DNA of 59,082 nucleotides from Ginglymostoma cirratum (Eukaryota). The notes below the pieces were generated by a model. The model did no database searches. It saw only the letters and a list, made by a program, of their open reading frames with translations, and was not told the DNA's origin. The position numbers and the translations under genes are program-made. The first letter of the stretch is position 1, and every line of letters starts with the position of its first letter. The stretch spans positions 1-59,082 of the forward strand of contig JAHRHZ010000209.1 in NCBI GenBank assembly GCA_024137785.1, written 5' to 3'. Positions 258 to 49,200 of this stretch are shown here, piece after piece.

Positions 258-3200
258 CGAGTGAAACAATGAGAGGCTGTTGCAGACTGATGTGATCCAC
301 ACGGCAAGTGTAGGTGTCCCCACTGCCCCGCTCCATCCCGATATATTTCAGGATGTTAAATGTCCAGTCCGGTTCCACCACTAACTGCGATGAGTTCACC
401 TCGCCCCGAAACGGCCTCCCATTGATCAGGAAACTCAGCTCAATCCCGAACGGGTAGAATTTCTCTGCATAACAGTACAGGATGTCCGAATGTCCCAGGC
501 CACCGTTCCGCTCCACGTAGATGTGCACAGACGGTTTCTCTGTCGGAGAAAGTGATCGCAGCATTAATGGCCGGCCGTTTGGTCCATTTTTCCTGATATC
601 CCACAGGAACTGTGGTGTCCCTATGGAGTATGGGCCTCTCCCATTCTTCACCAACCGTGGGGGCAGTAGTGACAACCCTCCAACCACCTCCTCCATCAGA
701 CCAGCTGGGGGTAGGGCGGCACGGTGGCAATGCCTTGCGCTCTCAATGCTCTTGGGGGGACAGTGTAGAGGGAGCTTTACTCTGTATCTAACCCTGTGAT
801 GTCCCTGTCCTGGCAGTTTTTGATGGGGGGACAGTGTAGAGAGAGCTTTACTCTGTATCTAGCCCTGTGCTCTTCCTGTCCTGAGAGTGTTTGCTGGGGG
901 GACAGTGCAGAGGCAGCTTTACACTGTATCTAATCCCATGCTGTCCTTGCCCTGGGAGTGTTTGATGGGGGATGCGGAGAGTGTAGAGGGAGCTTTAATC
1001 TAACTTGGTGGTGTCCCTGTGCTTTTTGGGGGAAAATGTTGAGGAAACTTTACTCTGTATCTTCTCTGTAACAAAAAAGACCATGCAGATCTAGGATCTT
1101 GCTGTGCACTGGAGGTGTCCTGATGTCCAACGTACCCTCTGCCATCGACTCTAGACTCCAGACTCCAAGCCCACTGCCCCCGGCTAGGGGCAGATCATCC
1201 CTCCCTTTGTAGACCATATAGACCCATACATGTGCGAGACAAGGAGAAGGGAGCTGGGGTTGTGTGCGTGAAAATTATCAAAAGTGGCATGACGAAGAGA
1301 GAGCAGTCAAGAAAGAACACAGTATTCGCCAGCTTCATTAATCGAGGCTGTGGTGGGAATGAAATTAAAGAACGTTATAGAAACTGGGCAGATCTTTCAT
1401 GGTGGGGGGGAAGAGAAGGAGATGATTAGCTTTTTGAGTTCTTCCTGAGAGGGGCGCCGTAGGCGGAGGGGGGTCAGGTGTAAAAGATGGTAAGGGTGAC
1501 CCAGACAAGACAAAGGGAGAGCTCACGGCTGTCAAGGAGTGCTAGGGATGTAAAATGGGTGTTAATGGTCGAGGGCTTTGGTGAGGGTTGACCAGACACA
1601 GGTGAGGGAAGGGGGCACAGTAGAAAAACTGAAGATGCAGCAAAGTCAACACTGAGTTTTGAAGGAGGTAAGGTCCCCAAGCAGAACGTGAGGGATTGTC
1701 CCTCCAGCTTGTGTTGAGTTCCATCCAGACATTGGGGCTGTCTCAGGACAGAAACTCCCGCTGTCCAGGAGGTTGTTGGGTGGGTCATTCTTAGATACTG
1801 GTCCGGCCTCCACTAGACGATTGCTTCCAGTTTCTGGGGCACTCCACAGCCCAACGTCCTCCGCGCTTTAGGTGAACACATTAAAGGGAGAGCAATTCCT
1901 GGGAACAGTTCCTGGCACGAGGGGGAGGTCAGAGCAGGGAAGGCCAAAGAGGAGATCCCATTGAGGTCTTGCCAAGACACGAGGGTGTGGTGCAGTCTGG
2001 GGCGGAGTAAAGGGAGAGAAGCCGCTTCCCGTTGGTGGAAGCATTGAGAGCCAGGGAGGGGACAACATGAAGAGAAACATTTCCACACAGTGAGCGGTTG
2101 GGGTCTGGAACATGTTGTCCGAGACAGTGATGGGGGAGGCTTTTGAGGGGGAACTGGATGGTTATCAGAAAGAGGAGGATGTTGTCGTGTGGGGAGAAGG
2201 CAGGAGAGTGGGATTGGACGGGGGGCTCATCAGGAGATTCAGTGCGGAGAACACGAGCTGTCGTACGAAAGGGATGTCATGTGGATGCTGATGGGGGAGG
2301 CCTGGCGAATCTCAGCGTGTGCCCATTCTGTCTCACCCTGCACTGCTCGTCCTGCTCCCTGGGGAACCAGCGACTTACTCTTGGCGATGGCTGTGGAGTT
2401 TGTCAAGTGGATCATCTCCCTGGTTGTGCCCCTCAGCCGGGCTTGGAAACCACGTGCTCTCTCACGGTAATAATCCACCTCCTCCTGACCCAGCTCCTGG
2501 ATCCCGTCCGTCACTTGGCCATTGATAACGAACGTCTGTGCTCCGTAATCGTAGAACAGGAACGGGACGTAGTTTATGCTGAACATGTCCAGGATGTTCT
2601 CGGAATGTGGAGTGTGGACGTAGTACAGACTCTCTGTCACTGCGCTGACCTCTAGCCCGGAGAAAGGAATTAAAAAATAGGTGTCAGAGTTTACCATTCT
2701 CTGACACACTCACCCCCTTACACACTCACCTGTTCATATCCTCACACACTCACATTCACCCCCTTACACACATGTTCACACCCTTACAAGCCCAAATCCT
2801 TTCACACTCATTCTCACGTTTGCACACTTACACATGCATTCAAATGCTTACACACTCATGTTCGCACCCTTACATGCTGAAACCCTGTCACACTCATGTT
2901 CACACCCTTAGACACACACACCCTTACACACATTCAAATTCTCACACACACATACCTTTACACATTCAAACCCTTACACACTCAAATTCAAGTTCTTACA
3001 CACTCACACCTTTACAAACTCACATCTTTACACACATGCCTTACCCACTTACCTTCAAACTCATACACACTCACACCCTTACACACTCACATTCAATCTC
3101 TTATCCACTCACCCTTACATGCACTCACAATCTTACACACTAACACCCTTTACACACTTGTACCTTTACATACTCAAACTCTCACACTCACACCCTTCAC

Positions 3201-3679
3201 ACACTCACGTTCAAACTCTTACACCCTTACACACGCAAACTCTTACACACCCACACTGTTCCACAACCCATTCAAACACTTGCACACGTGCAGTTTAAAA
3301 TTGCAACTCTAACACATTCAGTCTTACGCTCACACATATTCTCTTACACACAGACTTTCACACTTACACACTGACATGTTTATGGACACACACTCCTACA
3401 CACTCGGTCTTACATTTGCACATTCTCTCACTCATATTCGCTCACTACCACATTCACACTCCATCTCACTCTCACGCTCAGATTCACACACACGTGCACT
3501 CACACCACAACATACTTGGCTATGGGCCAAGTGCGGGTGAATGGGATTGGAATAGATAGATGCTCGAGGACTGGCATGGACAGAATGGGCCGAAGGGCCT
3601 GTTAAAAACTCTGCGACTCACCAATCTGTGCCCTGACTGCCATCGCCAGGATGAGAAGGCAGATCCCGCAGAATTCCAT
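258..3679 (-). CDS. WA: Gene A: W-category-type MHC alpha chain (class II-like architecture, beta2m-like Ig domain); 3' end lies outside the window
   Basis: Exons: leader 3679-3622 (gcgccATGG; MEFCGICLLILAMAVRAQI, G|gtgagt); alpha1 2651-2379 (273 nt, EVSAVTESLYYVHT...FLFYDYGAQTF...TNSTAIAK); alpha2 C1-Ig 539-258 (282 nt, KPSVHIY...LYCYAEKFYPFGIELSFL...LVVEPDWTFNIL...YTCRVDHISL). All introns are phase-1 GT-AG. The TM exon would lie left of position 1. Confidence 0.85.
730..1060. repeat. ~70-bp satellite/minisatellite (acagtgtagagggagctttactctgtatctaaccc...)
   Basis: Four to five degenerate tandem units; the same family occurs at 45110 and 53820. Confidence 0.85.
2705..3510. repeat. Degenerate CA-rich low-complexity repeat
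   Basis: Repeated cacactcac/cccttacaca units in gene A intron 1. Confidence 0.8.
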
Positions 3680-4649
3680 GGCGCGTGAACGTGTGGGTCC
3701 CTCTCCTGCGCGCTCCCAGATGGTGCGATGGGAATCGGAGAGTCGCTCAGAGGCAGATCGATAGGGTTGAGCTTTACCTGACGCCGTGATTCAGCACTGT
3801 AACTGAATCTCAGCACCAACACACACACCCCGCCCGCTTTCACCCCCGCTGTCAGCTAGCTCATTTCACAATCCCGGATATTTTAATCCGACACTTGGCT
3901 CCCATCCAGACGGACAGGTTCTGTGGGAACGAAGCACGTTTCAAACCACTGGGGGAATTTTGCAAAGCATCAGCGTCAGAATAGGGAGGAGAGAGGGGGA
4001 TCTCAAAGATGCTGGGGGAGGGGAGGAGATCTAACTCAAGGGGAATCTGTGAGGGAGTAGAGAGGGAGAGACCCTTTCCCGTTGCTGGAAGCATCGAGAC
4101 TCAACAGGAGGGGGGTTGGGGCAGGCACGGACTGACGGGGACAGGGACAGGGGACGGTGAGGGGTCGGCATCTGCCTGAGGCTGCCCAGGAGAATGTGGG
4201 GCAGGGGGAGGCAGGTTCGATCCAGGCCCTCACAAGAGGAGGGGATAGGATCGTCCGCTGCCAGGCCGAATGGATGTCATCTGCTCTGGATGAGTGGCGG
4301 GATTCACTGGTGGAGAGTGAGAGAAAGGGGCCAGTTGGAGCAAGAATGCCAGGAGATCAGCCCATGGAAGGTCGGGGACATGCAGACCGAGGAGGGGGCA
4401 CGTGCGGGTGCGGAGTCCTTGGTCGAGTGAGGGGTGGGTGTGCAAAGTGTATCCAGGAGTGACTCTCCTGCCCTGAAAATGGGCTGATTGTTCACAACAA
4501 GGTGGAAGGTCAAGAGCTGTTGAAGAGAGAGCATCAGTGTGCCTGAGGAGGAGCGGTGGGTGGGGATTGTGATAGACGCACCTGCATCTCAGGAATGTGG
4601 ACCGAGCACTGCTCACTCCAGGCAGTCTCACTCAGAGAACGCGTTTGAG
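3680..4649. promoter_or_regulatory. Putative bidirectional promoter / 5'UTR interval of pair A/B
   Basis: About 970 bp between divergent ATGs; unique sequence with a GC box (ccccgccc near 3827). Confidence 0.55.
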
Positions 4650-7600
4650 ATGACAGCTCTCTACCAGTGGGCACTGCTCACCGCTGTGGCTTGTGTCCTG
4701 GAGGTGGCGGGCAGCTCGACGGGTAAGTGGGGGGGGGTCTTGCGCGCCGGGGAGGGGGATGATGGGTAGTGAACCCTCCCTTATCTGAACCACCACCCCT
4801 CCCCCGCCTCGAGAGACAGGGAGGGTGGATTTAGAATGTGGAACAGCTCAGGAATGGGCCCTTCAGCCAACAATTTTGTGCCAAACATGATGTCATGAGC
4901 TAAATAGCGAAGTTCAGGGGTCAGGGGAGTCCAAAACTATAGGGGCAAAGGTTTAGGGTGAGAGGGGGAAAGGGACCTGAGGGGTAACTTTTTCACACAG
5001 AGGGTGGTGCATGTACGGAATGAGCTGCCAGAGGAGGTGGTGGAGGCTGGTACAATTACAACATTTAAAAGGCATCTGGATGGGGGCATGTATAGGACGG
5101 GTTTACAGGGTTATGGGCCAAATGCTGGCAAATAGGACTGGATTAGTTTACGATATCTGGTTCGGCACGGACGAGTTGTACCGAAAGATCTGTCTCTATG
5201 CTGTACAATGCTACAACTCTCTGAATTAAACTAATCCTTTCTGCCAGCCCTTGGTCCATATCCCTTCATTCCTTGCATATTCATGTGTTTATCTAAAAGT
5301 CTCTTAAACGTCCCTATCGTATCTGCCTCCTACACCACTCGTGGCAGTGCATTCCAGACACCTACCACTCTGTGTAAAAAAAATACTTGCCCCTCACTTT
5401 GCCATTGAACTTGCCCCCTCACCTTAAATTCATTCCTCCCCCCACCCCACCCAGTATTCGACATTTCAATCTGGGGAAAGGATTCTGACTGTCAACCTGA
5501 TCTATCAAGTCTCTCCTCAGCCTCCACTGCTCCAGAGAAAACAACCTGAGTTTTTCTAGAGCCTCCTTAAAGCTCATACCCTCTAATCCCGGCAGCATTC
5601 CGGCAAACTTCTTCTGTACTCTCTCTTGTTTGTCAATGTGACGTTGGCCAGCGATTGTGCCCAGTTCAGCCCCACCCCCCGCCACTTTAATTCCAAGCTA
5701 TATCCCCCTCATCCAATAGGGTTGTTATTGTAGCCAGTGGACATTGCAGAGGGACAGAGGATAGAAGAATGGGGGAGGAGGGGAGTGGTTTGTGAGGCCA
5801 CTCTAGCTCTCCCTGCCATTCCATTTGACTCTGGCTAATGGTTCCTGTAGGAGGACATTCCCTCCCCTCCCTCCTCCTCTCTTCGATATCTCTCTTGATC
5901 TCAGAGATTGAGTTTTGGGGCCCCATATCTAAGCAAAGATAGTCCTACATTGGAGGCAGTCCAGAGAAAGTTCACTCAGCTGATCCCAGGGATGGAGGGA
6001 CTGCCCTGCAAGGAGAGGTTGAGTCAGCTGGGCCCGTACCTGTTGGAGTTTAGGAGAACAAGAGGCGACCTTATTGAAACAGAAAAGGGGGGACCTGACG
6101 GGAGATGTGGCGAGATCGTTTCCCCCCTTGTGTGGGAGAGTCTAGGACCAGAGGGGACATCATCTCAGAGTAAGGGGGTCGCCCATTGAAGACAGAGATG
6201 GGGAGCAATTTCTTTCCTCTGAGGGGTGTGAGTCTGTGGAATTCTTTACCACAGAGGGCTGTCGGGGCTGTGTTGTTCAGGGCTGATATTTTTAATCAGG
6301 AAGGGGAATCCAAGGGTTATATCTGAGGCTGAGATAGAGAGATGTTTAATCAGGAAGGGGGAATCGAGGGGTTACATATAATCATAGAATCCCTACAGTG
6401 TGGAAACAGGCCTATCGGCCCAACAGGTCCACACCGACCCTCAGAGCATCCCACCCAGACCCATTCCCCTATAAACCCACCTAATATACACACCGCTGAA
6501 CACTATAGGCAATTTAGCATGACCAATCCGCCTAGTTAGCACATCTTTGGGAGGAACCCGGAGGAAACCCACACAGACATGGGAAGAGTGTGCAAACTGC
6601 ACACAGACAGTCGCCCGAGAGTGGAATCGAACCCAGGTCCCTGGTGCTGTGAGGCAACAATGCTAACCACCATGCCGCCCAAATATTTGAGACTGAGAGA
6701 TTTTTAATCAGAAGGGGAATCAATGGTTATGGGGATAAAGGCAGGAAAGTGGAGTTGAGGAAGATCAGATAAAAGTGATGTAAGGTGTGTGATTTATTGA
6801 TGATTTAACATGATTAGTTTTAGAGTTTGAGTTTGAACGCATGGCACATCTGTTTATTGTGTGCCTGAATAGGTTGAATGATCAACTTGATTATCTGTAG
6901 CCATGGTGATTTAGAAAAAACAACACGAGAAAGACAGAGTTCCTGGTGTGTCATGGGGTTCGGTTTTCTCTGGGAGAGTTGGTGAGTGAGCAACATAAAC
7001 TGTGTACCTCTGAGTTTAGAAGATTCTGGAAATCATGTTTTATTTTTAAACACTGAAATCTTGAAGTAAGCAATTGCATTTCAGTTCAGGTAGTTTTGTA
7101 GGGTGAAGCTTGAGGTAGGGTAAAACAATCTCTCCTGAGAAAGGATGTTTCCAACCTTTTAGAAATAAGTTACCTCCATGAAACGAGATTATTTTGAGAG
7201 CTCCAGACCCGAAGTGTTTGGATAACGCCTTGAAGGGGCTCTTTGAAGCTCGGTTGTATGATGGCTGAAGGAAGGGACTATTGGGTTCCTGTGACCAGGG
7301 TATGAAACAAGAGCCAAGTCAAAACCCTTGTGAGATGCAAATTCTGTCAGGAATTTGAGTGTCATAATTAGGATCATATTTTATCGGGCGTTGCAAAATC
7401 TTGAAACGTGTAGACAGACAAATGGTTTGGATTTTCTCGGTTAATTTCATATCTGTTACATAATAAACTTCTGCTCTATTGCGCAAACCAAATCTACAAT
7501 TTATGTTTCAGCGGAAGACCAGTTTATTATAAACGTTAAAAAAAGGTCTATCAAGCCACATTTCAGCCTGGGATTGAAATAGCCACAAGGTCCCATTAAC

Positions 7601-10600
7601 TGCCAGAGCAGACACGAAGGGCCAGATGGCTGACTCCTGCTCCTACATCTTATGGTCTAATTTGCAAGGCAGGATGACAGGCAGAACCCCCCACCCCCAC
7701 ACCCAGTCCACTATGTTCCTCCTTTAATTAACCCCCAAGTACAACAATTGGTGACTCAGCTTCACGTAGTCAAGGCTGTGGCTCTGGGGAATGTCGACAT
7801 GACGATCTGCATTACAACAGCCAAGAGATGTCAACATTGGAAATGTTCAGCAAGCAGGGAGAACACATCCTCAGCAAATCCAGCTCCCTCCATCCCCCTC
7901 CCTATCTCTACCACCTCCTCCAGCCCCTACACCCCCCTCCCTATCTCTGTCACCTCATCCAGCCCCCTACAATCCCTCCCTATCTCTGNNNNNNNNNNGT
8001 CACCTCATCCAGCCCCCTACAATCCCTCCCTATCTCTGTCACCTCCTGCAGCTCCCTACACTCCCTGCCTCAGTTCTGACAGAGAGCAATTAGTCCCGAA
8101 CAGACCTGAAGCCATGACAACTCTAAGCGACCCTTCCCTGAGCTTATAACAATTAACCTCTGACAGATCGTCAATTGTGACTATTCGCAATTAGACACTA
8201 ACTGGCCCTGTGCTCTGATTAATTGTAAATAATCCTGAAGTGGTTCACAACGTTGGCCAGCAGCCTCAGACTATGAGTGACCCCAAGCTGTGAAACTGAT
8301 GACCGTCAGTATCTAACTGACCCCATTAAAGGCAATTTTCTTTAAACCCACCCGAAGTGGTGACTAAAAGCTCTTGCGCTCTAGCTGAACTGTCACTGAA
8401 GCAATTAGCCTCGAGCTGACCTTCTGCCAAGACAAATGCCAGTTAACCTCTGATGGGCAGTGGGTTGGCATAACCAGGCATCCAGCTTCTGAACGAGCCT
8501 CGGGCTCCCACAAATTGTCTCTGACTGACCCGGCCCACCTTCATTCCCGTGACCACCCGTTGTTGCGTTCCTTTGCCAGGTCTCCACATTCTGCACGTGC
8601 TGTGCGACTGCGTCTATCGGGAGCAGCAGACCGTCATATTGTGGGAGGATGCTTATGATGGTGCCACCATAATGTACTATGACCTGGCGAACAAGAGCTT
8701 CGTAGCAACACAGCCTTTCGCACAGGGACAGGCAGACAGACGCAATTCAAATGGAGACTTTGTTCAGTCCGTCCCTCAGCAGATTGGCAGTCTGTGTGAG
8801 AAAATTAAGCAAACGGCAAACTTAACACATGTCAGACAGCAGCAAATAGGTAGGACTTTTCTTTTTCTCTTTTTTTTAGAAAAAATCAGAGCAGTGACAC
8901 TTCCCAAAGCACAGAGCGAGGGGATTGGGCAATGAAAGACTGGGATGCCAGATCGGAGTGGGGAGGTTGTTTACAAGGAGACAGTAGCAACACACACTTC
9001 TCTGACCACCTTCAACATCCCCTCCCTCCACCATCGGCACCCCGCTGCGGCTGGGTTTATTAGAAATGCTCGGCTAAGCTCCAACACTCGCTGTCTCCAC
9101 CACCGATGCACAGTGGTGGCTGGGCTTATTAGGAATGCTGGACTGAGCTCCACATCTCTCTCTCTCCCTCCATCACCAATGCACCGAAGCAGTTGAGCTT
9201 ATTAAGAATGCTGGGCTGAGCTCCAACACTCCCTCTCTCTACCACTGATGCACAGAAGCAGCTGGGCTTACTAGGAATGCTCAGCTGAGCTCCACATCTC
9301 TCTCTCCCTCCATCATCGATGCACAGAAGTAGCTGGGCTTATTAGGAATGCTTGGCTGAGCTCCACATCTCTCTCTCCCTCCATCATCGATGCACAGAAG
9401 TAGCTGGGCTTATTAGGAATGCTTGGCTGAGCTCCACATCTCTCTCTCCCTCCACCACCAACGCACCGAAGGAGCTGGGCGTATTAGGAATGCTCAGCTG
9501 AGCTCCAACACTCCCTCCTTCCATAACCGAGGCACAGCGCCAGCTGGACTCATTAGGAATGGTCAGCTGAGCTCCAACACTGTACTGGGTCAAATTCCCT
9601 GACCCTAACCCTGTGACTAATGACAATTAACTTCTAACTGACCCTATCCCATAATTAATAGCAATCCTTGAACTGACCCAAAGTTGTAAGCAAAAGTAAT
9701 GGTCCTCTAACTGACCGGCTGCAGTGGGAAATGGACCCACAACAGCGCAGGCCGAGACTGCCTGTACGGGGGAGGGTTTGGAGATAGAGAAGGTTCCTGA
9801 GGACAGTGAAAGGGGAGGGAAGGGTGGATCTTCAGCTGTTTGGGCGTCACTTTGCAAAGGGCTGTAGTTTCTGACGACTCTAACCTCTGACCCCATGCCA
9901 CATCTGGGTCCACAGCCCCCACGTCCGTCAGAGCCTTTATGGAGGAGCGAGCCGGGCAGAGGTCGCTGCTGTGTGAGGTGAGGAATTTTTTCCCAGCGGA
10001 TGTTACAGTGAGCTGGCTGAGAGATGGCGTAGTCATCGCCGACAGTTCAGAGACGGTGAGGGTCGTGCCTCAGAGGGACCAGACATACCAGGCCTGGAGC
10101 CGTCACACGCTGAGGGGCGACGTGGGCGGTTCATATTTCTGCCAAGTGGAGCATCCGGCCCTCGCCAGGAAACTTCTTGTCCCGCTTGGTAAGATCTCAA
10201 GGAATGGCAGTCCCTGTCCTCCTTTTGCCCACACTGGGCCGAATCTCCGCACTAAACCCAAATATTTACATGCTCAACAAACACGCCATCGTGGGGCACG
10301 CAGGCATCACTGGGAAGGCCAGCATTTGCTGCCTGCCCCTTCCCCTCCCCTCACTCCACCGATTGCCCCTTCTCAGTGTCTCGGACCCTCGCTGCGGGTC
10401 TGGAGTCACATGTAGTAGCGGTTGGTACCTCCATCGCTAAAGATCCAGGAGGGATCTGGGGTCTTGAAGTTGGTCGGGGAGGCTTTTTTTCTTGTTAATT
10501 CATTGTGTTAAATTCCCACCCCCCCCATCCACCTGCCAGTGTGGGATTTGAACCTGTGACCCCCGCCTGGAGAGGGGTGGTGTGGGTGGGTTGGTGGGGG

Positions 10601-11961
10601 CAGGGGATCTGTGTCCCAGGGATATTCCCACGAGGGGTGTTGTGGGAAGTGGGAAGGGGAAATGTGCTGGGGGTGGGGGTTCCTGTGCGGGTGTCACAAA
10701 CACAAAGTAAATTCTGACCCCCCCCCCCCCACTCTCTCACTGCCTCCTTTCCTCAGAAAGTGACCAGACCATCACTAGTGAAGCAGCATTGACCATCATC
10801 GGGGCAGTGCTGGGCCTCCTGGGATTGAGCTTCGCACTGGTCGCTGCCATTCTCTACTGCCGCTTCTTCAACCGTAAGCAACGACGAGATGTTCCCTTGG
10901 GATACAGGAGCCCACAGACAGCAGTGGAGAGAAAGAGAGGGGAGAGAATGGGAGCGAGAGAGAGAATGGGGGAGAGAGAGAGAATGGGAGAGGGAGATGG
11001 GGAGAGATAGTGAAACAGACAGAGAGAGGGATGGAGAGAGATGGGGAGAAGGAGGGAGAGAGAAATGGGGAGAGGTCCGGAGAGAGACAGAGAGAGGGAG
11101 GAAGAGAGATGGGGAGAGGGAGAGAGAGAGAGACGGGGAGAGGGAGTGAGCGAGGCACTGGGAGTGGGGGCGGTGTGAGACCGAGAGAGGGCCCGCCCCC
11201 CCCTCCCCCCCCGATCGCCCAATGCGCCCCCTGGTTCGGGGGTTTGGTGGGGGGGGGGGGGTGGCGCTAGTGGTGGGACGTCAGTGAGGGCCTGAGCCTG
11301 GACTGAACCTGTTCCCTTTGTTTGTGCCGCAGGTTGTCCCCCGGCCCGTGCAGACCCCCCAGGTGAGAGAGACCGTCCCCTCCCCCCGGTCCGTATTCCG
11401 GGGGGGGATAGTGGGAGGGAATGTGCTGGAGATGACAGGGCAACAGTTCCAACGTTGTGGTTTCCCTCTCCCTTCCAGCAAAGTTCACCAGCCGCGGAGG
11501 AGTTCTGTGTCGCTCCAATGTGTGTAACAGCAGTGTCCGATCCAGCAGCTCTGACACTTCCAGCAGCAGCACCACGTCAGGTAACAGCGAGGCCGGGAAT
11601 CTGGGAATCATTCTCGGGAATCTCGGCACGTGACCCTTGGGAATCTGGGAGCGGGGTCCTCAGGAAACTGGGAATGCATCCCTTGGGGAATTTGGGAACC
11701 ACTCTGAACCTGGGATGGAGAGGGGAGAGGACAGTGGAGGAGGGCAGGGGAGGGAAGGAGAGAGGAGGAGATGGGGAGGGGCACGAGGGCAAAGGAGAGG
11801 ATGGGAAAGGGACGGGAGGGCAGAGGAGGGAATGCGGGGGTAGGGGAGGAGAAGGAGGAGGAGGGAGATAGCGAGCAAAGTGGGATTTTCCCAATGAGTG
11901 AAGCTGACCTCTTGCCTCTTTCCCCTTTACAGCTGACAATCTGACCAAAACACACGCCTGA
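4650..11961 (+). CDS. WB: Gene B: W-category-type MHC beta chain, divergent partner of gene A
   Basis: Exons: leader 4650-4722 (MTALYQWALLTAVACVLEVAGSST); beta1 8580-8849 (GLHILHVLCDC...EDAYDGATIMYYD...LCEKIK); beta2 C1-Ig 9916-10188 (LLCEVRNFFPADVTVSWLRDG...VVPQRDQTYQ...YFCQVEHPAL); TM 10757-10873 (LTIIGAVLGLLGLSFALVAAILYC); cytoplasmic exons 11333-11362, 11479-11580 and 11933-11961 (ADNLTKTHA*). All phase 1, followed by AATAAA at 12158. Confidence 0.87.
4915..6280. mobile_element. Cluster of CR1 3' fragments, both orientations, in gene B intron 1
   Basis: Translations include LERVQKKFAGMLPGLEG, LEAVQRKFTQLIPGMEG and RGDLIE. Confidence 0.75.
6380..6682 (-). mobile_element. HE1/V-SINE-type SINE
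   Basis: Same A/B boxes and V domain as the copy at 14405-14730. Confidence 0.75.
7880..8070. repeat. ~39-bp minisatellite
   Basis: ccctccctatctctgtcacctcatccagccccctac units; reverse complement of the 23830-24295 array. Confidence 0.8.
9010..9580. repeat. ~60-bp tandem repeat
   Basis: Repeated gctgggcttattaggaatgctyggctgagctccac...ccatcaccgatgcac units. Confidence 0.85.
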
Positions 11962-25100: not shown

Positions 25101-26350
25101 TCTTATCTATTTTTGACCAGCCTGCTGTACTCAAAACAGGCTGGGGTTATATTCGAGGCTCAGAGAGAGATGTTTAATCAGGAAGGGGGATTGAGGGGTT
25201 ATATTCGAGGCTGAGAGAGAGAGAGATGTTTAATCAGGAAGGGGGATCGAGGGGTTATATTCGAGGCTGAGAGAGAGAGAGATGTTTAATCGGGAAGGGG
25301 GATCGAGGGGTTATATTCGAGGCCGAGAGAGAGAGAGATGTTTAATCAGGAAGGGGAATCGAGGGGATATGGACATAGGTTGAAGTCAGGTAAGGCTCGA
25401 CTGGGAGACCCTGAACGCAATCTGGGGGCAAATGGGGTTGCAGGTGGTGGACAAGGGGGTGTAATGAATAACAATTGACTCTTCTTCTCCTTCACTGTTC
25501 CCCTGCACACCCCTCCCCCCAGAATTGACGGTGAAAGCCTGGCCATCGGGAGGATATGCTGTCGGGATAACATTTGGGATTATTGGCATCATCTGTACTG
25601 TGACTGGCATGGTTGGCCGACGGCTAGGTAGGTGTGGAATCTGTGCGTCTGGCCCAGCCAAAGGAACCCTGTCCCCCCACTTCCCCCCCCCCACCCACCC
25701 CACCCCACCACCATCCTTCCCGAACACCGGGAGCAGTATCCCTCCCCAGCACACTGAGCCATTCCAGGTCATATTGAGCACCGACAAGTCTCCAGGCTCC
25801 CTGGCAGATGTTTCCTCTCTGCTCCGGACTGCATTTCCAAATGTTTCACTCTCCCACGGAGAGCCGTTTCCAGGAAGGGGTGAGGTTGAGGTTCTGGGGG
25901 TGCCGGGTGGGGGGGGAGGGGGGGGAGTGGGGGGGTGGGGGGTTGTGGGGGGGAGGGGGCAGGTTGGGGTGTTGGGGGGGAAACACGGAGAGCAGGAGGT
26001 GGCTGCAGTGGGTCAGCCCCAATCTCAGACCCATCTCTCGGTTACTTTCTCCCCAGGGCACCATGCTAGGGGCTCACCAGCCTGGACCAACCAGAACCAA
26101 CGCAACACCCATTCAGAGGGTAGTTCGGGCATCAATGGCTCAGGTAACACCAACCCCCAACCCCACAACCCCTAACATCACCCTCCCGCCTCCCCCCCTC
26201 CACCAACACCGCTCTATCCCTCACTCAACACTGCCCCATCCCCCCAAACACCGCCCCATCCCCCACTCAACACTGCCCCCACCCCCCAACCCCTAACATC
26301 ACCCTCCCTCCCCCCCACCAACACCGCCCCATCCCCCCAAACACTGCCCT

Positions 26351-26403
<53 letters not shown>

Positions 26404-29400
26404 TATACACACACACTCACGGACACGGACACACACACACAGACACAAACACACGTACGCACACACACACACAAACGTACACACACACACGTATACACAC
26501 ATAGACACACACATATCCTCCGCTGTCCCACTTTTCTCCCCCCAGACCCTTTAGGCCCTCAGAGCCAAATCCAGCTCCTTCCTGAATATTATTCAGTGTT
26601 TCAGCCCTGACTGCTCTTTGTGGCAGAGAATCCCACAGGATCCCTCCCCCATCCAACTCTCTGCGGCAAGGCCTTTCTCCCCAACTCAGTCTCCTTTAGA
26701 CCGTGACCCTTAGACTTCCCCAAAATCGGAAACATTTTCCCCACGTCTAGCCTGTCCATCAGGATTTTATCCATATCTAGAAAATCACCCTCGCGAGTAC
26801 AAGCCCAGTCGATCTGGTCTTTCCTCATCTGTCAGTCCTGCCATCCCAGGAATCAGTCTGGTGAACCTTCGCTGTACTCCCTCAATAGCAGGAATGTCTT
26901 TCCTCAGACTAGGAGACCCCAATATTGCATCCAATACTCAAGGTGCGGCCTCACTGCAGGAAGACATCCTTACTCCGATACTCAAACCCTTTCTCCCTAC
27001 GAAGGCCATGATGCCATTAGCTTTTCTCACCGCCTGCTGCACCTGCATGCTAACATTCAGTGACTGTTCCACCATAACAGCCAGGTCTCAGTGCACCTCA
27101 CCGTTTCCTAAACTGTCCCCATTTAGATCATAATCTGCCTTCCTGTCTGTTTTTGTCACCAAAGTCAATAACCTTATATTTATCCACATTATATTGCATT
27201 TGCCCACTCTGCCAGTATGCCCAAGTCACCCTACAGCCTCTTAGCATACTCCTCACAGCACACACTGTCACCCAGCTTAGGATCATCTGCAAATTTGGAG
27301 ATATTGTGCACAATTCCTTCGTCCAAATTGTTGCTGGTGCTCACACCAGAGTTCCCATCTTGGTAGGTTTGAGTGACTTATAATTTCAATCTATGGGCTG
27401 GAATGCGGGCTGATTTCTCCTGGTTATCCGTACACCTAAGCCTTAATAGGCTGAAGTATAAGGAATCTCTTCAGGGTTCTGTCCCAACACTCCTGGCGCA
27501 GATCTAAGGCCAGCTCTTTCCTCGGAAGTAATCAAGTTTAAATTATATCCTTCCCTTCCCTCTTCAGCTGGCAACTTCACAGAACTGTTCAAAGCTTCAA
27601 AAGAACTAAAGACAAACTCTCTCTCTCTCGCTGTCTATCTACGCTCTCTGTCTCTCTCTCGCTCCTCTCTTTCTCTCTCTTTAAGTTGCAGGTGTTTTCC
27701 AGCTAAAGCAGAACTTTCTGTATCTAGTTTGTGCAGACTTGCATGCAGGTAGACAGGGCGGTAAAGAAGACGTATGGCATTATTGGTTAGGGAACTGAGT
27801 ACAAGCATCAGGATGTCAATGTTGCAGCTTTGTAAACGTTTAGTTAGGGCACACGTTAGAATATTACATTCAGTTCTGGCCGCCGCGTTACAGGAAGGAT
27901 GTGGGGGCTTTGGAGACGGTGCAGAAGAGGTTTAAAAGAACAAAGAACAAAGAAAATTATGGCACAGGAACAGGCCCTTCGGCCCTCCAAGCCTGCTACC
28001 CGTCACAACTAAAACCCCCTACCCTTCCAGGGACCCTATCCCTCTATTCCCATCCTATTCATGTATTTGTCAAGACGGCCTTTAAAAGTTGCTATAGTAT
28101 CTGCTTCCACTACCACCTGAGCAGCAAGTTCCAGGCATCCACCACCCTCTGTGTAAAAACACTTGCCTTGTACATCACCTTTAAACCTTGCCCCTTAAAC
28201 CCCTGCCCCCTGGTAACTGACTCTTCCACCCTGGGAAAAAGCTTCTGACTGTCCACTCTATCCACGCCCTTCATAGTCTTGTAGACCTCCATCAGGTTGC
28301 CCCTCCAGTGAGAACAACCCAAGTTTCCCCAACATCTCCTCATAGCTGGTGCCCTCCATACCAGGCAACATCCTGGTAAATCTTTTCTGTACCCTCTCCA
28401 AAGCCACCACATCCTTCTGGTAGCGTGACGATCAGAATTGAACACAATATTCCAAACACGGCCCTAACTAACTGCTTGGATTAGGGGGTATGAGCTATAA
28501 GGAGAGGCCAGAAAAACTCAGGTTATTTTCTCTGGAGCAGTGCAGGGGAGACTTGATAGAAAAGCATGAGATAAGATTGATGGTCAGAATCTTTTTCCTA
28601 GAGTTGAAATGTCTAATACTGATGGAATGAGCTGCCAGAGGAAGTGGTGGGGGCTGGTACAGCGACAGCATTTAAAAGGCATCTGGATGGGTGCATGGAT
28701 AGGAAGGGTTTAGAGGGATAGGGGCCAAATGCTGGTAAATGGGACTAAGCCCATTGCACTGAAGGGTCTGTTTCTGTGCTGTACGGCTCTATGACCGGGA
28801 GCGTGCATTTAAAGTGAGTTCAAAGGAGATGTGAGGGGCAAGTTTTTTTACACACAGAGTGGTAGGAGTGTGGAATGTGTTGCTAAGTGTGGTGATGGAA
28901 GCAGTTATGATAGGGGCATTTAAGGGACTTTTAGACAAGCACATAGATATGCAAGGAACGGAAAGATATGGACCAAGGGCAGGCAGAAGGAAATAGTTTC
29001 ATTTGGGCCGAAGGGCCTGTTCCTGTGCTGTGCACTGTTCTATGTTCTATGACCGAGTGTCCTGTCTGGCCTGTACAGATGAGCCTAAACGTAAGGAGGA
29101 CACCCCCTCATCTACATCAATAGAAGGTGGAGAGTGTCAAGTTCCTCGCAGTGATGATAAACTGACGACTTGTCCTGGGCTCCCCCCGTAGATGTGACAG
29201 TACAACAATGTCCTCCTCTTCCTCAGGAGGCTCAGGAAATTTGCCGTGTCCATAAAGTCCCTCACCAACTTCTACAGATGCACCATAGAAAGCATACCGT
29301 CCGGATGCATAGTGGCCTGGTACGGCAACTGCTCTGCTCAGGACCGTAAGAAACTACAGAAGGTGGTGTGCACAGCCCAGACCATCACAGAAGCCAAACT

Positions 29401-29856
29401 CCCACCTATTTACACAACTCAGAAAGGCAGCCAACATCATCAGAGACCCTGGTAATGATCTCCCACAACCTCTTCCATCAGGCAGAAGGTAGAGAAGCCT
29501 GAACACACGCACCAGCAGGTTCAGGAACAGCTGTCATCAGACTGATGGATGTGCTTCTCTCATTTCAAATGTAATGTCGATCTGTGCACCTCCTGTACAG
29601 CCGCAACCCCGTACGCACCTCACGACCTGCCTGCACTGCTCGCAAAACAAAACTTTTCACTGTACTCGGACACACACAATAACAATGCATCAAGTTGGGA
29701 GTGTTACAGACCAGTGCTGCCTCAGGACCTGCTCTGACCTGTTTTTTTTTTCCCTCATGTTTTGCAGGGATCTGCACACAGGCAGAGGCAGAACGCCTGT
29801 GCGGGGAAGGTGAATGGCATCCCAGTCCCACTGACATCAACCTGAGTCTAGCTTGA
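22106..29856 (+). CDS. WB: Gene D: W-category-type MHC beta chain, divergent partner of gene C
   Basis: Exons: leader 22106-22154 ([16 protein letters not shown]); beta1 23517-23771 ([15 protein letters not shown]); beta2 24549-24827 ([17 protein letters not shown]...[11 protein letters not shown]...YTCQVEHSS...W); TM 25523-25627 ([20 protein letters not shown]); cytoplasmic 26057-26143. A candidate last exon at 29768-29856 (...[10 protein letters not shown]) is less certain. Confidence 0.85.
23830..24295. repeat. 39-bp minisatellite
   Basis: (gagggggtgacggagatagggagggggtgtagggtgatg)n. Confidence 0.9.
25140..25370. repeat. ~55-bp tandem repeat
   Basis: ggggttatattcgaggctgagagagagagagatgtttaatcaggaaggggga, four copies. 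Confidence 0.85.
26560..29050. mobile_element. Cluster of CR1 fragments
   Basis: ADD-like MILSW fragment, [30 protein letters not shown] and [10 protein letters not shown] motifs. Confidence 0.7.
29070..29550 (+). mobile_element. Rex1/L2-type LINE 3' fragment
   Basis: [12 protein letters not shown]...[19 protein letters not shown] is typical of the C-terminal part of Rex1/L2-type LINE ORF2. Confidence 0.7.
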
Positions 29857-32269: not shown

Positions 32270-32960
32270 CTCGTGAGGGCTTGTATCGAACCTACCTGCC
32301 CCCGGCCCCACTTCATTCCCCTGAGCAGCCCCAGGTAGACCCCGACCCCTCACCATCCCCTCCCACCGTGTGTCCCCAGTCCATGCCTGACCCCTGTTCG
32401 CAACGGGAAAGGGCTCTCTCCCTCTCTACTCCCTCACAGATTCCCCTTGAGTTAGATCTCCTCCCCTCCCCCAGCATCTTTGAGATCTCCTTCTCTCCTC
32501 CCTATTCTGACGCTGATGCTTTGCAAAATTCCCCCAATGGTTTGAAACGTGTTTCGTTCCCACAGAACCTGTCCGTCTGGATGGGAGCCAAGTGTCGGAT
32601 TAAAATATCCGGGATTGTGAAATGAGCTAGCTGACAGCGGGGGTGAAAGCGGGCGGGGTGTGTGTGTTGGTGCTGAGATTCAGTTACAGTGCTGAATCAC
32701 GGCGTCAGGTAAAGCTCAACCCTATCGATCTGCCTCTGAGCGACTCTCCGATTCCCATCGCACCATCTGGGAGCGCGCAGGAGAGGGACCCACACGTTCA
32801 CGCGCCATGGAATTCTGCGGGATCTGCCTTCTCAGCCTGGCGACGGCAGTCAGGGCACAGATTGGTGAATCGCTGAGTTTTTAAAGCAGGCCCTTTGGCC
32901 CGTCCTGTCTGTGCTAGCCCTCAAGCAATTGCTCTGTTCTCATCCCATTTCCCTGCACTC
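32270..32960 (+). repeat. Inverted duplicate of the gene A promoter and leader (3520-4250)
   Basis: Core 32400-32885 is a near-identical reverse complement of about 3600-4085, with the same incidental ORF translations (e.g. MKAGGVCVLVLRFSYSAESRRQ). The flanks are homologous but visibly more diverged. Confidence 0.9.
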
Positions 32961-35073
32961 AGCCTGCAGCTGTGCACATTTGTCCGAACACTTTTTCGAA
33001 TGTCTTGACACCCTTTCTTCAGTCAGTTCTGCCAGCCCTCCGGGTGAAAATTGATTGTGTTACATCCCCTTCCCTTAAAACTCTGCCCCCGGATCATTAC
33101 AAATTTCATTTGTGGGATGTGGATGCCGCTGGCTAGGCTGATAGGTATTGCCCATCCCTAATTGCCCATAGGGCAGTTTAAGAGTCACCAGCATTGATTT
33201 GGGGATGGAGTCACATGTCGGCCAGACTGAGTAAGTTTCATACAGTGCACAGCACTGCAGCAGGCCCTTCAGCCCATTACATTGTGCCGAACATGACACC
33301 AAATTAAACTAATCCCTCCTGCCTGCCCTTGGTCCATATCCCCTCCATTCTTTGAGTTTTCATGTGCTTATCTAAAAGCCCCTTAAATGCCCCTGTAGCA
33401 TCTTCCCCCACCGCTGCCCCCTGGCAGCGTGTTCCAGACCCCTACCACTCTCTGTGTAAAATAAAAACCTGCCCCTCTCATCTCCTCTGAACGTGCCCCC
33501 TCCCACCTTAAATGTATGACCCCTACCATTAGACATTTTATCTCTGGGAAAAAGATTCTGGCTGTGAACTCTATCTATGCAGCTCATAATTTTATAGACT
33601 TCTATCAAGTCTCCCCTCAGCCTCCAGAGAAAACAGCCCAAGTTTTCTTGCCTCTCCTTATAGCTCAGATCCTCTAATCCAGGCAGCATCCTGGTAAACC
33701 TCTTCTGCACCCTCTCCAAATCCTCCAACATCTTTCCTGTAACACGGCGACCAGAACTGAGCCAGGTATGTTTCCTTCCCTTAGGGCCATTAATGAACCA
33801 GGTGGGTCTTTATTCCCGATATTTGGAAATTTAAACTCTCGATTCTAGACCTTCTCTTTAATCGAGATCCCAGAATTGGGCTGATGGCCCCCACCACCCC
33901 CACACCCCCACACACCCCTCAAGCAATTTACAAATTTGAGGAGGTCTATACGTGCCGAGGACCTATGGAGAGGTTGGGTGCCCTGCTGGGTGGGGTGGGG
34001 TTTAAATATAGACGTTCATGCACATCCAAAAGACAAAGTTAAGGAACTGTACACACACCAGGTCATTGCTCCTGGCCCGTGTCCCTCCAAACCTTTCCTA
34101 TTCATGTACCTATCCAAATGGATTTTAAACATAGTAACTGTACCCACATCCACCACTCCCTCAGGCAGTTCATTCCACACACAAACAACCCTCTGTGTTA
34201 AATGTTTGTCGCCACCCTCCAACCTTGTCTTTTTTAAATCTCTCTCCTCTCACCATAGAAATGTACCCCCTAGTCTTGAAATCCCCCACCCTAGGGAGAA
34301 ACAAGTACCATTCACTACCTATATCTTTCTTGATTTATAAACTTCTATAAGGTCTCCTCTCAACCTCCAGTGGGAAAAGTCCCAGCCTTTCTTTATAACT
34401 CAAACTCATTCCCAGTAACATCCTGGTAAATCTCTTCTGAACCCTCTCCAGCATCATAATATCTCTTCCTAAAACTGCTTGACCAAAATTGGGCACACTG
34501 CTCCAGAAGAGGCCTCGCCAATGTGCTGTACAACCTCAGCGTGACGTCCCCAACTCCAACACTCAAAGGTTGATTGATTCTTCTGTGTCTTCGATGTGGG
34601 CCTGTGAATGCAACTGTTTGCTTTTATTAAGAGATTAAGTGCTGGAAGAGATTTAAAATCAGGGATGTTTAGGCTCACATCTTGATTAATTTCAGCCACG
34701 GCTCCTGGCATGGAAGGTGAAAGGGGAGACGATGGTCCTGAAGTTGGCGTTAGGTTGGCCTAGAGGCTATTACGGGGCATGGAACGATCCCACTGTGTTT
34801 GACATAAAAGATATTTTGTCCGTTCTGCTTGCCCTGCCCAGAGATGGAAACCGTCAACGCAAGACAATTACACAGTGGAGTCTGAGATCCTTCTCCAGGC
34901 TGTATGATGTTGGGAGGCGAATGTTCATCATCAACGGAAATGCGACAGACCTGGGTGGCAGAGCTGGGCCAGGGTGAGGCGACGCATTACAGAGAAAGAT
35001 CCCACCAGTCCCCCCAAAACACGATGCGTTGCCGGAGACCTGATAAAGACTGCGGACCCCATAACCGTCCGCA
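32807..35073 (+). pseudogene. Gene E: alpha-chain (WA-type) pseudogene, paralog of gene A
   Basis: Leader 32807-32864 (MEFCGICLLSLATAVRAQI) is nearly identical to gene A. The degenerate alpha1 exon 34842-35073 is 232 nt (not a multiple of 3), has an early TGA and a frameshift near 34950, and aligns to gene A: YDVGRRMFIINGNATD/WVAELGQGEATHYRER vs [32 protein letters not shown]. No Ig exon was found. Confidence 0.75.
33240..34570 (-). mobile_element. CR1 3' fragments in the intron of pseudogene E
   Basis: [16 protein letters not shown]...LRGDLIEVYKIM; TQRVVCVWNELP. Confidence 0.75.
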
Positions 35074-43698: not shown

Positions 43699-46165
43699 TC
43701 ACATCGGGTGCTGGGTCAAACCATCTCCTAGGAAACAGAGAAACGATAACGTCAGTGCAGGGGCAGGGTCTAGGAGCAGCTCCAGAGTGGCTAGCAGGAT
43801 CTGGCCATTCGGCCCCTCTAGATCCTGCTCCCGTGTATAACTGAAGCATGGCCTCCCTCCGCTTGTATTCACTTCCCCTCACAATAAACCGTTCCGGCCT
43901 TCCTGATTACTTGCTGTGCCAGCAAACTAACCTTTATTTGTCGGTCATCATGTACACAATCCTCTTGATGTGCATTACACAAATGCAAGCCTTCCGGGCT
44001 TTTCTATCCAACTCCCTTTGGGATAAATACCCCGACTACTTGCTGTGTGTGCATCCCAACCTCTCATTTGCTCTAATGAATATCCCTGTTCCTCAACACC
44101 CCCCAACACCATCAGTCCCTATTTTATCTGTTCGAACTCACAAACAGCTTGCAGACAAGTGCAATATGAGCCGTCATGCATGCGCTGGGTATATATTTTG
44201 GGTTACGCCGTGCCCAGAGCTTTTACCTGAAGTGGCACTGGTGTTCGAACGCATGCTGGTTTGGCTCCGCTCCGAATGGCCGTGCTGTCGGTTTTTCAGG
44301 AAAAGCACTGTGGGGGAAATCGGGAAATGTCAAGAGCCTACTGCGAACGCAAATTTCTCACCGGCGTCCGCGTGCGTGGCCGCTTCGACGTGATCCGCGT
44401 CGCAAATTACCTGTGGGCTCGAAGATCTCAGCATGGCGACCTGCGCAGGAGATAAAGCAGGGATTAACACTCAGCAGCAAGCGATTCGTGAGTTCGAACT
44501 GATGCAACAGGAACGGGCGGGAGCAACTCGGCAGGGGATCGAAAGGGGGAGGGTTAGGGACAGATTTTTAAATCGGCAATGGGTTTGAAGGAGAAAGGAA
44601 AGTGGACGGAGGCCGAGATGGGGTAGGCCCACCATGGGACTGAATGTAGTGATTTCAAGGGGCCGACTGGCCTGCCCCCGACCTAGTTTCAGGGTTTTAA
44701 GAGGGGGTCAGGGATCGCAACATCCTCTGTGACCCTTCCCTGATGCTGAACACCATCCCTCACCCTCCCATCCCAGGCCGCCTGGGGTTAGAAGTGACTG
44801 TGTCCAGCCGTGACATTTTGGCCAATGGTGATGGGGAGCAGGGACGTCCATTTTAATGTGGACAACACGAGGGCAGGGTGTACGGAGGGGGCAGGAGGGT
44901 CATCAGCGATGATGGGGGGGGTGGCTCTCCCTACACACACACCCCCCCACCACCCCACTTCCCTCCCACCGTTACCTTGAAAATTCAGGCGAATGTAGAT
45001 CCCAGCCAAGGCAAAGGTGACTCCCAGAATTCCAAACAATATTCCCACAATGGCAGCCGGAGACAAGGAGAGCTTTCGGTCATCGACTTGTGAAAGGGGC
45101 AAAGACAGGGACAGGGGGTTAGATACAGAGTAAAGCTCCCCCTACACTGCCCCCGCATCAAACACTCCCAGGGACAGGGACAGCACGGGGTTAGATACAG
45201 AGTTAAGCTCCCCCTACACTGCCCCCGCATCAAACACTCCCAGGGACAGGGACAGCACGGGGTGAGATACAGAGTAAAGCTCCCCCTACACTGCCCCCAC
45301 ATCAAACACTCCCAGGGACAGGGACAAGGGGTTAGATACAGAGTAAAGCTCCCCCTACACTGCCCCCACATCAAACACTCCCAGGGACAGGGACAGCACA
45401 AGGTTAGTTACAGAGTAAAGCTCCCCCTACACTGCCCCCACATCAAACACTCCCAGGGACAGGGACAGCACGGGGTTAGATACAGAGTAAAGCTCCCCCT
45501 ACACTGCCCCCACATCAAACACTCCCAGGGACAGGGACAGCACAAGGTTAGTTACAGAGTAAAGCTCCCCCTACACTGTCCCCGCATCAAACACTCCCAG
45601 GGACAGGGACAGCACGGGGTTAGATACAAAGTAAACCTACGTCTACTCTGTTCCCCCACCCCCCCACTGCCCCCCCCCACGACCCGGGACAGGGACAGCA
45701 CGGGGTTAGATGTTCTCCTAGCAGCGAAATCTTGCCAGCGCCGTCTATCTGACAAACGATGCTGCTGCACCGGGGTCCCTGTCGGACACAGGGGCGGGCG
45801 TCGTGATGTTGGCAGACGTACCCCAGTCGAGGCGGTATCCCTCGGGGTAGGGGTAAGCGGCGTGCTGAACGAGGCAGGTGTAGGTAGTGGCAGAGCCAGG
45901 CTCCAAGTTGACGTACGCTGCTGTCTGGAACGTGCCATCGCTGGTCGGGAGGGTTGGGCTGCGCAACACCACTGAATGCATGCCCTCGCCGTTCCTCAGC
46001 CAAGTCACGTTGACTGCTTCGGGATAGAACCCTGCCACGGTACAGCGCAGCTGGTTCGGGTGGCCGATGATGTGCAGGTCGACCAAGGTAATCCTCACTG
46101 ACGGAGGCACTGAGAGGCGAGACACGAGATACTCACAATCTGACATTCACTCCACCTGTGTCCTA

Positions 46166-46210
<45 letters not shown>

Positions 46211-49200
46211 NNNNNNNNNNNNNNNNNNNNNNNNNNNNNNNNNNNNNNNNNNNNNNNNNNNNNNNNNNNNNNNNNNNNNNNNNNNNNNNNNNNNNNNNNN
46301 NNNNNNNNNNCCCCCCACCCCAAACTTTCCAGCCCTCCCCCCTCCTCCTTGAGCCTGTTACACAGGAACACGAGGCCATTCAGCCCACTCCTCCATCCTG
46401 TTACACAGGAACACGAGGCCATTCAGCCCACTCCTCTGTCCTGTTACACAGGAACAGGAGGCCATTCAGCCCACTCGTCGAGCCTGTCACACGGGAACAG
46501 GAGGCCATTCAGCCCCCTCGTCGAGCCTGTCACACAGGAACAGGAGGCCATTCAGCCCCCTCGTCGAGCCTGTCACACAGGAACAGGAGGCCATTCAGCC
46601 CACTCCTCTGTTCTGTTACACAGGAACAGGAGGCCATTCCGCCCCCTCCTCGAGCCTGTCACACAGGAACAGGAGGCCATTCTGCCCCCTCCTCGAGCCT
46701 GTTACACAGGAACAGGAGGCCATTCAGCCCTCTCCTCCATCCTGTTACACAGGGACAGGAGGCCATACAGCCCTCTCCTCCATCCTGTTACACAGGGACA
46801 GGAGGCCATTCAGCCCTCCTCCTCAAACCCTCTGAGACAGCATTCACTCAGAGTTGCTTTTTAAAAGATGAAGCAATGAGTGGTTTGTTTAAAAAAGAAC
46901 ACCCCGGGCCATTGCAAGTGGCCAACCACGAACCAGGAAACATAAAAATAGAAATGTTTGTTTCATAAGCAATAAAGATTATGGACCAAAAATACGACCA
47001 TGATACAATCCGCAATGCAGCAAATGTGCAGTAACTGAAAAACAGGAACTATTCACTTGTGGTACATTGAACTCTAAATAACGCTAAGCACTGCAAACAG
47101 GGAGCCTTGTTTAACAATCGCAGATGGCATCGAAGTTGGGGGTGGAGGGCAGAGCTAAGGAGGTTAGCTCAGAGTACGACAGGACTTCGATCAGATGGGC
47201 CAAGGAGGGGCAGATGGAGTTTAATTCAGATAAATATGAGGCGCTGCGTTTTGGGAAAGGCCCATCAGAATTAATGGGAAGGTCCTGGAGGAGCGTCGCT
47301 GAACAGAGAGACCTCGGTGGGGGGGGAGCAGGTACATAGTTCCTTGAAAGTGGAGTCGTAGGTAGACAGGGCGGTGAGGGAGGGGTTGGGGACGCTCGCC
47401 TTTATGAGTCGGTGCGTTGAGTGTAGGAGTCGGGAGGGTCATGTATTGGTGAGGCCGCTTTTGGAATACTGCGTCCAATCCCGGTCTCCCTGCTCCAGGA
47501 AGGACGTTGTGAAACTTGAAAGGGCTCATAAAAGATTGACAAGGATGTCGGAGGGTTTGAGCGATAGGGAGAGGCTGGGGCTATTTTCCCTGGAGCGTCA
47601 GAGGCTGAGGGGATGACCTTATAGAGGTTTATAAACCCATGAGGGGCATGGATAGGAGGAATAGACAAGGTCTTTTCCCCCCAGGGTAGGGGGGTCGAAA
47701 ACTAGAGGGGCATAGGTTTAAAGTGAGAGTGGAAAGGGACCTGAGGGGTAACTTTTTCACACAGAGGGTGGTGTGTGTATGGAATGAGCTGCCAGAGGAA
47801 GTGGGTAGAGGCTGGTACAATGACAACATTTAAAAGGCATCTGGATGGGTACATGGATAGGAAGGGTTTAGAGGGATATGGGCCAAATGCTGGCGAATGG
47901 GACTGGATTAATTTGGGATATCTAGGTTGGCACAGATGGGTTGGACCGAAGGGCCTGTTTCTGCGCTGTAGGGCTCTCTGGCTCTAAGAAAGGTGTTCAG
48001 GACATTGCAAGTAATTACAGTGAAGTTTAACTTCAAAACAGAATTACTCTGGAACTGATGTTGTTAGTGCGTAGGGGAAAGGCGTGGCTTGACTTGGAAG
48101 AGCCAGCACAGATTTCTAAACACGGAAAACCATTGAAGTAACTTGCTGAAGTTTTTTTTTGAAAAAGAGGGAGGATCGATGAGGGGAACACAGTCGATGC
48201 TGTGTATATGGACTTCTAGAAGACAGACCATCTCACAACAGGAAAGTTATGGATCAGGGCATAGAAGGGACGGCTGCGATGCGGATGTACAGTCGGCTGA
48301 GGGGGCAGGGAGGCAGAGTTGTGGTCCAGTGGGTATTTTTCGCCCTGGAGCACAGTTCGCAGTGGGCAACTCCAGTCCTGGGATTCTCGCTTTTCCCTGA
48401 GATGTATCGACGACCTGGCTGCAGGCGGGGGTGGGGGGAGTTTCAGAGTTTGCGGAGGACGCTTAAAGCGTGGAAGAGCAGCTCCGACAGTGCCCGCTCC
48501 CTCAGCACTGACCCTCCCACATCGCCCGCTCCCTCGGCGCTGACCCTCCGACAGTGCCCGCTCCCTCGGCGCTGACCCTCCAACAGTGCCCACTCCCTCA
48601 GCGCTGACCCACCGACAGCACCCACTCCCTCAGCGCTGACCCTCTGACAGTGCCCGCTCCCTCAGCGCTGACCCTCCGACAGTGCCCACTCCCTCAGCGC
48701 TGACCCACCGACAGCGCCCGCTCCCTCAGCACTGACCCACCGACAGCACCCACTCCCTCGGCACTGACCAGCAGAAATCTAAAAGGACAGCGACAAGTCA
48801 GTGGATTGAGGGGGGGGACAGATGAGTTTCAACACTGAGAATAGATGTATTTTACTCAGTCAAACATTACAGACAAGGTAAAACAGAAGCTGCAATTGTA
48901 AAGGGGGTTAAGGAGCAGAGAGAGAGAGAGAGAGATGGGTGTACATTTGCACAGATCACTGAAGGTGGCAGGACAGCTGGAGAGGGCAGTTCATAAAGTA
49001 GGCAGTGCCCTTGTGTTTATTAACGGGGTGGGGGAGGGAAACATTGAGTCTGAGAGTGAGGAGGTGACGTTGAGCTGGTTAGACCCCAGCTGCAGTACTG
49101 TGCGCTGTTGGGGGCCCTGCGTTATAGGAGGGATGTGAATGTATTGGAGCGAACGCGCAGAATCGACTGGTTCCGGGGGGGGGGGAGAAACAACAAGGAG

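Follow-up and report, generated by a model that had tools for sequence, protein, structure and literature searches.

The W-category, which has been proposed to be intermediate between class II and class I of the MHC, is the closest described system to the genes considered here. In the parts of the literature on which we draw, WA and WB genes are reported as head-to-head pairs in sharks, teleosts and coelacanth, and three presumable WA/WB pairs are clustered in the great white shark (Okamura et al., 2021; PMC8713811). Salamander WA and WB depend on each other, as a heterodimer, to mature and be displayed at the surface, and a teleost WB is no substitute (PMC8713811). The W-type genes of elasmobranchs are described as multicopy, syntenic and located outside the MHC (Verissimo et al., 2023; PMC10751288). 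Two other systems are relevant for comparison. Conventional class II genes are also paired and encode two chains of two ectodomains each with glycine motifs in the TM region, and many of the pairs are divergently transcribed (PMC8713811, Fig. 8 legend). TAP1 and LMP2, two immune genes of the human MHC, are transcribed away from a short spacer between them, and their shared bidirectional promoter has been characterised experimentally (PMC2191963, in the part used here).

The window analysed here is an entire contig of 59 kb, from a shark genome of 4.36 Gb other than those described. We put a probability of roughly 0.8 on the reading that it holds three old head-to-head W pairs, which probably arose by duplication of entire cassettes; each would likely make its own heterodimer and be transcribed, again likely, from two cores that are separate but have nearby upstream elements in common. 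The gene order is A(-) B(+) C(-) D(+) F(-) G(+), and the facing start codons are at 3679(-)/4650(+), 21659(-)/22106(+) and 51272(-)/53525(+). WA and WB are head-to-head in all three intact pairs. Pairs 1 and 2 are alpha(-)/beta(+) and pair 3 is beta(-)/alpha(+), that is, inverted. A first-pass annotation of this DNA had described the facing pairs, spacings of about 970 bp, 446 bp and 2.25 kb, the inversion of pair 3 and an insertion of about 0.9 kb between F and G, all of which are confirmed. The bases between paired ATGs number 970 for A/B (3680-4649), 446 for C/D (21660-22105) and 2252 for F/G (51273-53524), and the interval 3622-4722, singled out in that annotation, spans exactly the A exon-1 donor to the B exon-1 donor. 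The statement that each alpha gene faces one beta is right for A, C and G and wrong for a broken seventh alpha copy, the pseudogene E, which is unpaired. The insertion in the F/G spacer is a truncated LINE piece of about 0.93 kb (~52018-52946), multicopy in the window, whose broken minus-strand frames resemble the end of a CR1 reverse transcriptase; CR1 is the family to which we take it to belong. Were three alphas and three betas set down in random order and orientation, three adjacent divergent pairs would occur in 8 of 1280 arrangements, a figure to be read in the knowledge that duplicated genes are not independent draws. The head-to-head layout is the arrangement already published for the W-category and adds nothing to the 2021 description.

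Models of the six genes, based on splice sites and reading frames, comprise leader, membrane-distal and C1-set exons. Every exon examined is open and flanked by AG and GT, the Ig exon is of the C1-set in all six genes, and TM exons were found for four of the six, those of A and G not being in the contig. Both chains have a class II-type architecture: a leader, a membrane-distal domain, a C1-set Ig domain and a TM/cytoplasmic region (TM seen in 4/6). Gene A (258-3679, minus strand), a WA DS5-like alpha, consists of exons 3622-3679 (leader), 2379-2651 (alpha1) and 258-539 (alpha2 Ig). Its neighbour B (4650-11958, plus), a WB Nds5-like beta, has exons 4650-4722, 8580-8849, 9916-10188 and 10757-10873 (TM), and short tail exons to ~11958. 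In pair 2, the WA DS10-like alpha C (15476-21659, minus) has exons 21584-21659, 19442-19702, 17517-17798 and 15476-15672, and the WB DS1-like beta D (22106-29847, plus) has exons 22106-22154, 23517-23771, 24549-24827 and 25523-25627, with tail exons near 26056 and 29764. In pair 3, the WB DS3-like beta F (43705-51272, minus) has exons 51182-51272, 49945-50220, 45822-46109 and 44976-45086, with tail exons to ~43705, and the WA Nds3-like alpha G (53525-58379, plus) has exons 53525-53615, 55398-55652 and 58101-58379. Introns of A, F and G carry a related minisatellite of 71-74 bp (753-1001, 45104-45635 and 53816-54021).

Judged by sequence, all six are orthologs of MHC W-category genes: WA-DS5L/WB-Nds5L (A/B), WA-DS10L/WB-DS1L (C/D) and WB-DS3L/WA-Nds3L (F/G), the same six lineages and the same three-pair cluster as reported for sharks (PMC8713811, PMC10751288, in the parts used here). 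Ig domains were compared by eye with rows of Dataset S2 (PMC8713811), and the identities were then confirmed in trees with database proteins, where every gene groups with named shark orthologs in a separate clade. The Ig domains have their closest matches, at 84-94% identity, in the whale shark and the zebra shark, so the source is a carpet shark. For each of the six paralog lineages there are named orthologs in other sharks, and for three of them in rays as well; an extra search for Nds3L orthologs added one new protein. Ectodomain identity among the paralogs is only 21-25% for the alpha and 24-31% for the beta chains.

The diagnostic residues are likewise those of published W genes, with a mixed picture at positions 55 and 57 of alpha2. 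In alpha2, numbered after the Dataset S2 rows, W61 is present in all three domains (A, C, G) and W37 in none, position 37 being F in A and G and L in C; Y8 is present in 3/3. Of the W-category alpha2 residues L55 and F/Y57 (L55 and F57 in beta2-microglobulin), L55 occurs in one alpha2 (A; G has S55) and F57 in two (C and G; A has V57). Published shark WA rows likewise depart, with V at 57 in DS5 and I55 in whale shark DS10 (PMC8713811, Dataset S2). In beta2, P57 is present in 3/3 (B, D, F) and W61 in 0/3; D and F have G61, and B has Q61 rather than G61, at a position that is also variable in the published Nds5L rows of the same dataset. That the genes are conventional class II alpha/beta pairs is suggested by their domain architecture and by the automatic database names of their homologs, which read 'class II histocompatibility antigen ...-like'. 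This identity is refuted by the trees and the diagnostic residues, and we give it practically no weight. The W-type residues at 37, 57 and 61 differ from those in this genome's own conventional exons (W37/F61 in IIA, W61 in IIB), and the trees set the W genes apart from both IIA and IIB. In a 45-row tree, a 99/99 branch separates WA alpha2 together with beta2-microglobulin from class IIA, and the best PDB matches of a DS5 profile are beta2-microglobulin fusions. It is likely that every pair encodes a separate heterodimer of class II shape, whose domain interfaces are of class I type.

A single class IIB and a single class IIA Ig exon were found in the genome, at C2:4349368-4383456, both on the minus strand and 34 kb apart, so head-to-head orientation marks the W genes here. 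The location of W genes outside the MHC (PMC10751288, in the part used here) fits the presence of class I, class II and beta2-microglobulin exons on a contig other than the window. A beta2-microglobulin exon lies at ~C2:4687700 with many class I alpha3 exons nearby, and class I alpha3-like exons are also present away from this main cluster, at C197:370794 and C2:668192. Head-to-head orientation is not required in the W family, since in a lungfish a WA and a WB gene are listed as a pair on the same strand with 275 kb between them.

The window differs from the described shark clusters in having an extra, partnerless WA-DS5 pseudogene, E (32270-35005, plus strand). It comprises an inverted copy of the A promoter and exon 1 at 32270-32959 (ATG 32807) and a frameshifted alpha1 remnant at 34900-35005. 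The former is the only other match in the genome to A's promoter and first exon, and lies 29 kb from A. Identity to A is 397/402 upstream of the ATG (99%) and 56/58 in exon 1, and drops to 112/164 and 73/95 in the flanks. Only the A-proximal 557 of the 970 bp of the A/B spacer are retained. The alpha1 remnant is matched in tblastn by 23 of 45 queries (best E 7e-5) and by two adjacent weak profile hits (E 0.03 each); it scores 115 against other DS5 alpha1 types, 102 against A, 42 against C and 39 against G. The null of the DNA scan for this remnant contained A's own exon (maximum 242) and was for that reason set aside. DNA scans with six exons across 26.2-43.7 kb gave no convincing match to an alpha2 or beta remnant near E, in a region where N runs at ~41.0-41.4 kb could hide an exon. 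The top-scoring match, to exon 3 of A near 26.8 kb (score 48; mean 24), was dropped, having no protein-level support. A near-identical promoter next to far-diverged flanks and a diverged alpha1 remnant suggests recent gene conversion between A and E: E is likely an old second DS5 gene that decayed, and whose promoter was recently homogenised with that of A. The transcript contig of RNA run X1 carries the A letters at both sites that distinguish A from E, and E transcripts left no sign in X1, where contigs drop rare variants. As E shows, alpha genes need not have a partner beside them. It is an addition to the published description, although the SI Appendix of PMC8713811 (Figs S4, S11 and S12) may already cover E-like copies, as well as spacing and expression. 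In the parts used here of the W-category and W-type literature (PMC8713811, PMC10751288, PMC12619710 and PMC13399432), we found no promoter or pairing tests among shark W paralogs. The window, with six intact and deeply diverged chains and their spacers, is a compact set for such partner and promoter questions.

The first-pass annotation had proposed that the facing genes share promoters, a claim that the spacers do not uphold. In local alignments of the three spacers, none of six comparisons exceeded the highest of 100 shuffles each, which is unsurprising for paralogs only 21-31% identical in protein. A motif scan found no element common to the three spacers. Neither CCAAT nor TATA was matched in the spacers of A/B and C/D, and none of the three has a Y-box, which is a further difference from conventional class II pairs, along with the W-type interface residues. 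Matches to X1/RFX-like, kB-like and E-box motifs are scattered through the spacers, in a scan run without a null. RNA reads and contigs were placed on 2300-10300 of the window, within pair 1. In run X1, a contig joins A exons 1 and 2 at a depth of 635, and the B joints have depths of 811 (exons 1-2) and 1062 (exons 2-3). The A contig ends at 3800 and explains all the depth of its bin, and B coverage starts at ~4614-4646; in between, depth is 3-8, like that of repeat-free intron bins. The 5' coverage ends of A and B are ~0.8 kb apart, as given by contigs, which cannot fix starts or levels. This distance suggests two core promoters in the A/B spacer. That of A would comprise a GC box at 3835, 35 bases from the contig end, and an initiator-like site at 3804, 4 bases from it; the initiator-like match is weak, since such hexamers occur by chance once per 63 bases in the window. 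Bidirectional promoters are generally those with divergent starts within about 1 kb.

Co-regulation is the companion claim. Run X1 contains spliced transcripts of A and of B, and run X3, from which only repeat-derived reads were placed, has reads of neither gene; from a further run, X4, nothing at all could be placed, which carries no weight either way. In run X2, however, B exons 2 and 3 are joined at a depth of 52 whereas the A exons and B exon 1 are at 1-4, an observation that argues against strict co-regulation, with the reservation that levels cannot be read from contigs and that filtering can leave holes. X2 lists no joint of B exons 1 and 2, and the 30 letters ahead of exon 2 in its contig are unplaced; the pattern may reflect a second first exon of B, or a hole left by the contig filter. 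The genes of each pair are likely transcribed from two separate core promoters with common nearby upstream elements, and co-regulation would follow from their proximity.

Duplication of the pair as a unit, also put forward earlier, can be examined by comparing the alpha and beta topologies. Trees were built from 45 rows for alpha2, 47 for beta2, 30 for the alpha ectodomain and 29 for the beta ectodomain, all hand-picked from the matches, with no bony-fish WB among them. The best alpha and beta trees are ((pair 2, pair 3), pair 1) in all four builds, which share data; with three lineages, agreement by chance is one in three. DS10 and Nds3 group with support of 88/76 (alpha2) and 87/85 (alpha ectodomain), and DS1 and DS3 with 93/90 (beta2, with two class I rows inside the group) and 74/52 (beta ectodomain). 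The grouping of pairs 2 and 3 thus has a bootstrap of 74-93 and was never starred. The best trees agree with the claim, but in none of nine AU tests was the grouping tested rejected (p 0.07-0.42; two were run with bony rows free), so the congruence is consistent with cassette duplication and is not proof of it. Duplication of the pairs as whole units is plausible from these comparisons. Two bony-fish-type WA proteins, P0154 (which matches the zebrafish row of Dataset S2) and P0161, join shark DS5 at 98/92, both on long branches; the grouping would date the split of pair 1 before the divergence of bony and cartilaginous fishes.

How far does the layout bear on regulation and partner choice? In the strong form of the first-pass annotation, each spacer is one true bidirectional promoter with equal and simultaneous output, and each chain pairs with its cognate partner alone. 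In favour are the short spacers of 446 and 970 bp, X1 contig depths of A and B that differ less than twofold and, weakly, the lack of A and B reads in X3. TAP1/LMP2 has a similar layout, but there the shared promoter was established by experiment (PMC2191963, in the part used here), whereas the W spacers are known from sequence and the A/B transcript ends are ~0.8 kb apart. That coverage gap, the 0.93 kb retroelement within the F/G spacer, the 557 bp that E retains, B without A in X2 and the want of a motif common to the spacers make this strong form unlikely. The opposite view, that the layout is merely inherited from one ancestral pair, that the genes are now regulated separately and that the chains can cross-pair, draws on some of the same observations, namely B exons 2-3 without A in X2 and the partnerless E, and on the lungfish pair on one strand. 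Some mammalian class II isotypes do cross-pair. WA and WB labels are also unequal in number in other elasmobranch clusters (PMC10751288, figure text of Supplemental Fig. 3). Set against this are the retention of all six lineages with named shark orthologs, three of them also in rays, the conserved order and strand of C and A in two lamniform gene models, paralogs about as far apart as different MHC classes, and the failure of a foreign WB to support salamander WA (PMC8713811, in the part used here). We regard this view as slightly less improbable than the strong form, though still doubtful.

Our preferred reading is that of three heterodimers, each likely made by one pair from separate but neighbouring cores. 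Deep divergence of the paralogs and the keeping of all six lineages across sharks make it likely that each chain prefers its neighbouring partner. We infer that such a preference would come from co-evolved interfaces between the chains, in paralogs only 21-31% identical. Cassettes that are not closed units are improbable: a second first exon would express WB-Nds5L without WA-DS5L, and read-through splicing from WA-DS10L to WA-DS5L, as modelled in two lamniform sharks, would make a four-domain alpha chain. If this long shot were true, the repertoire of shark W molecules would extend beyond three fixed heterodimers and include a form with a multi-domain chain, such as exon-shuffling models of class I origin require.

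Two further observations concern database entries. Models from the basking shark and the great white shark (P0001, P0002) fuse DS10 exons to downstream DS5 exons; the corresponding splice would be in frame here (17517 to 2651), and the fusion is either a read-through transcript or an annotation error. Same-species copies of DS5 or Nds5 are 44-61% identical in the distal domain and 87-99% identical in the Ig domain, in all four pairs compared (P0006/P0007, P0011/P0013, P0015/P0018 and P0046/P0050). Given gene order, this divergence of the distal domains would allow a finer comparison of co-evolution between the chains. Similar distal-domain types of these copies, which are alleles or paralogs, recur across species.
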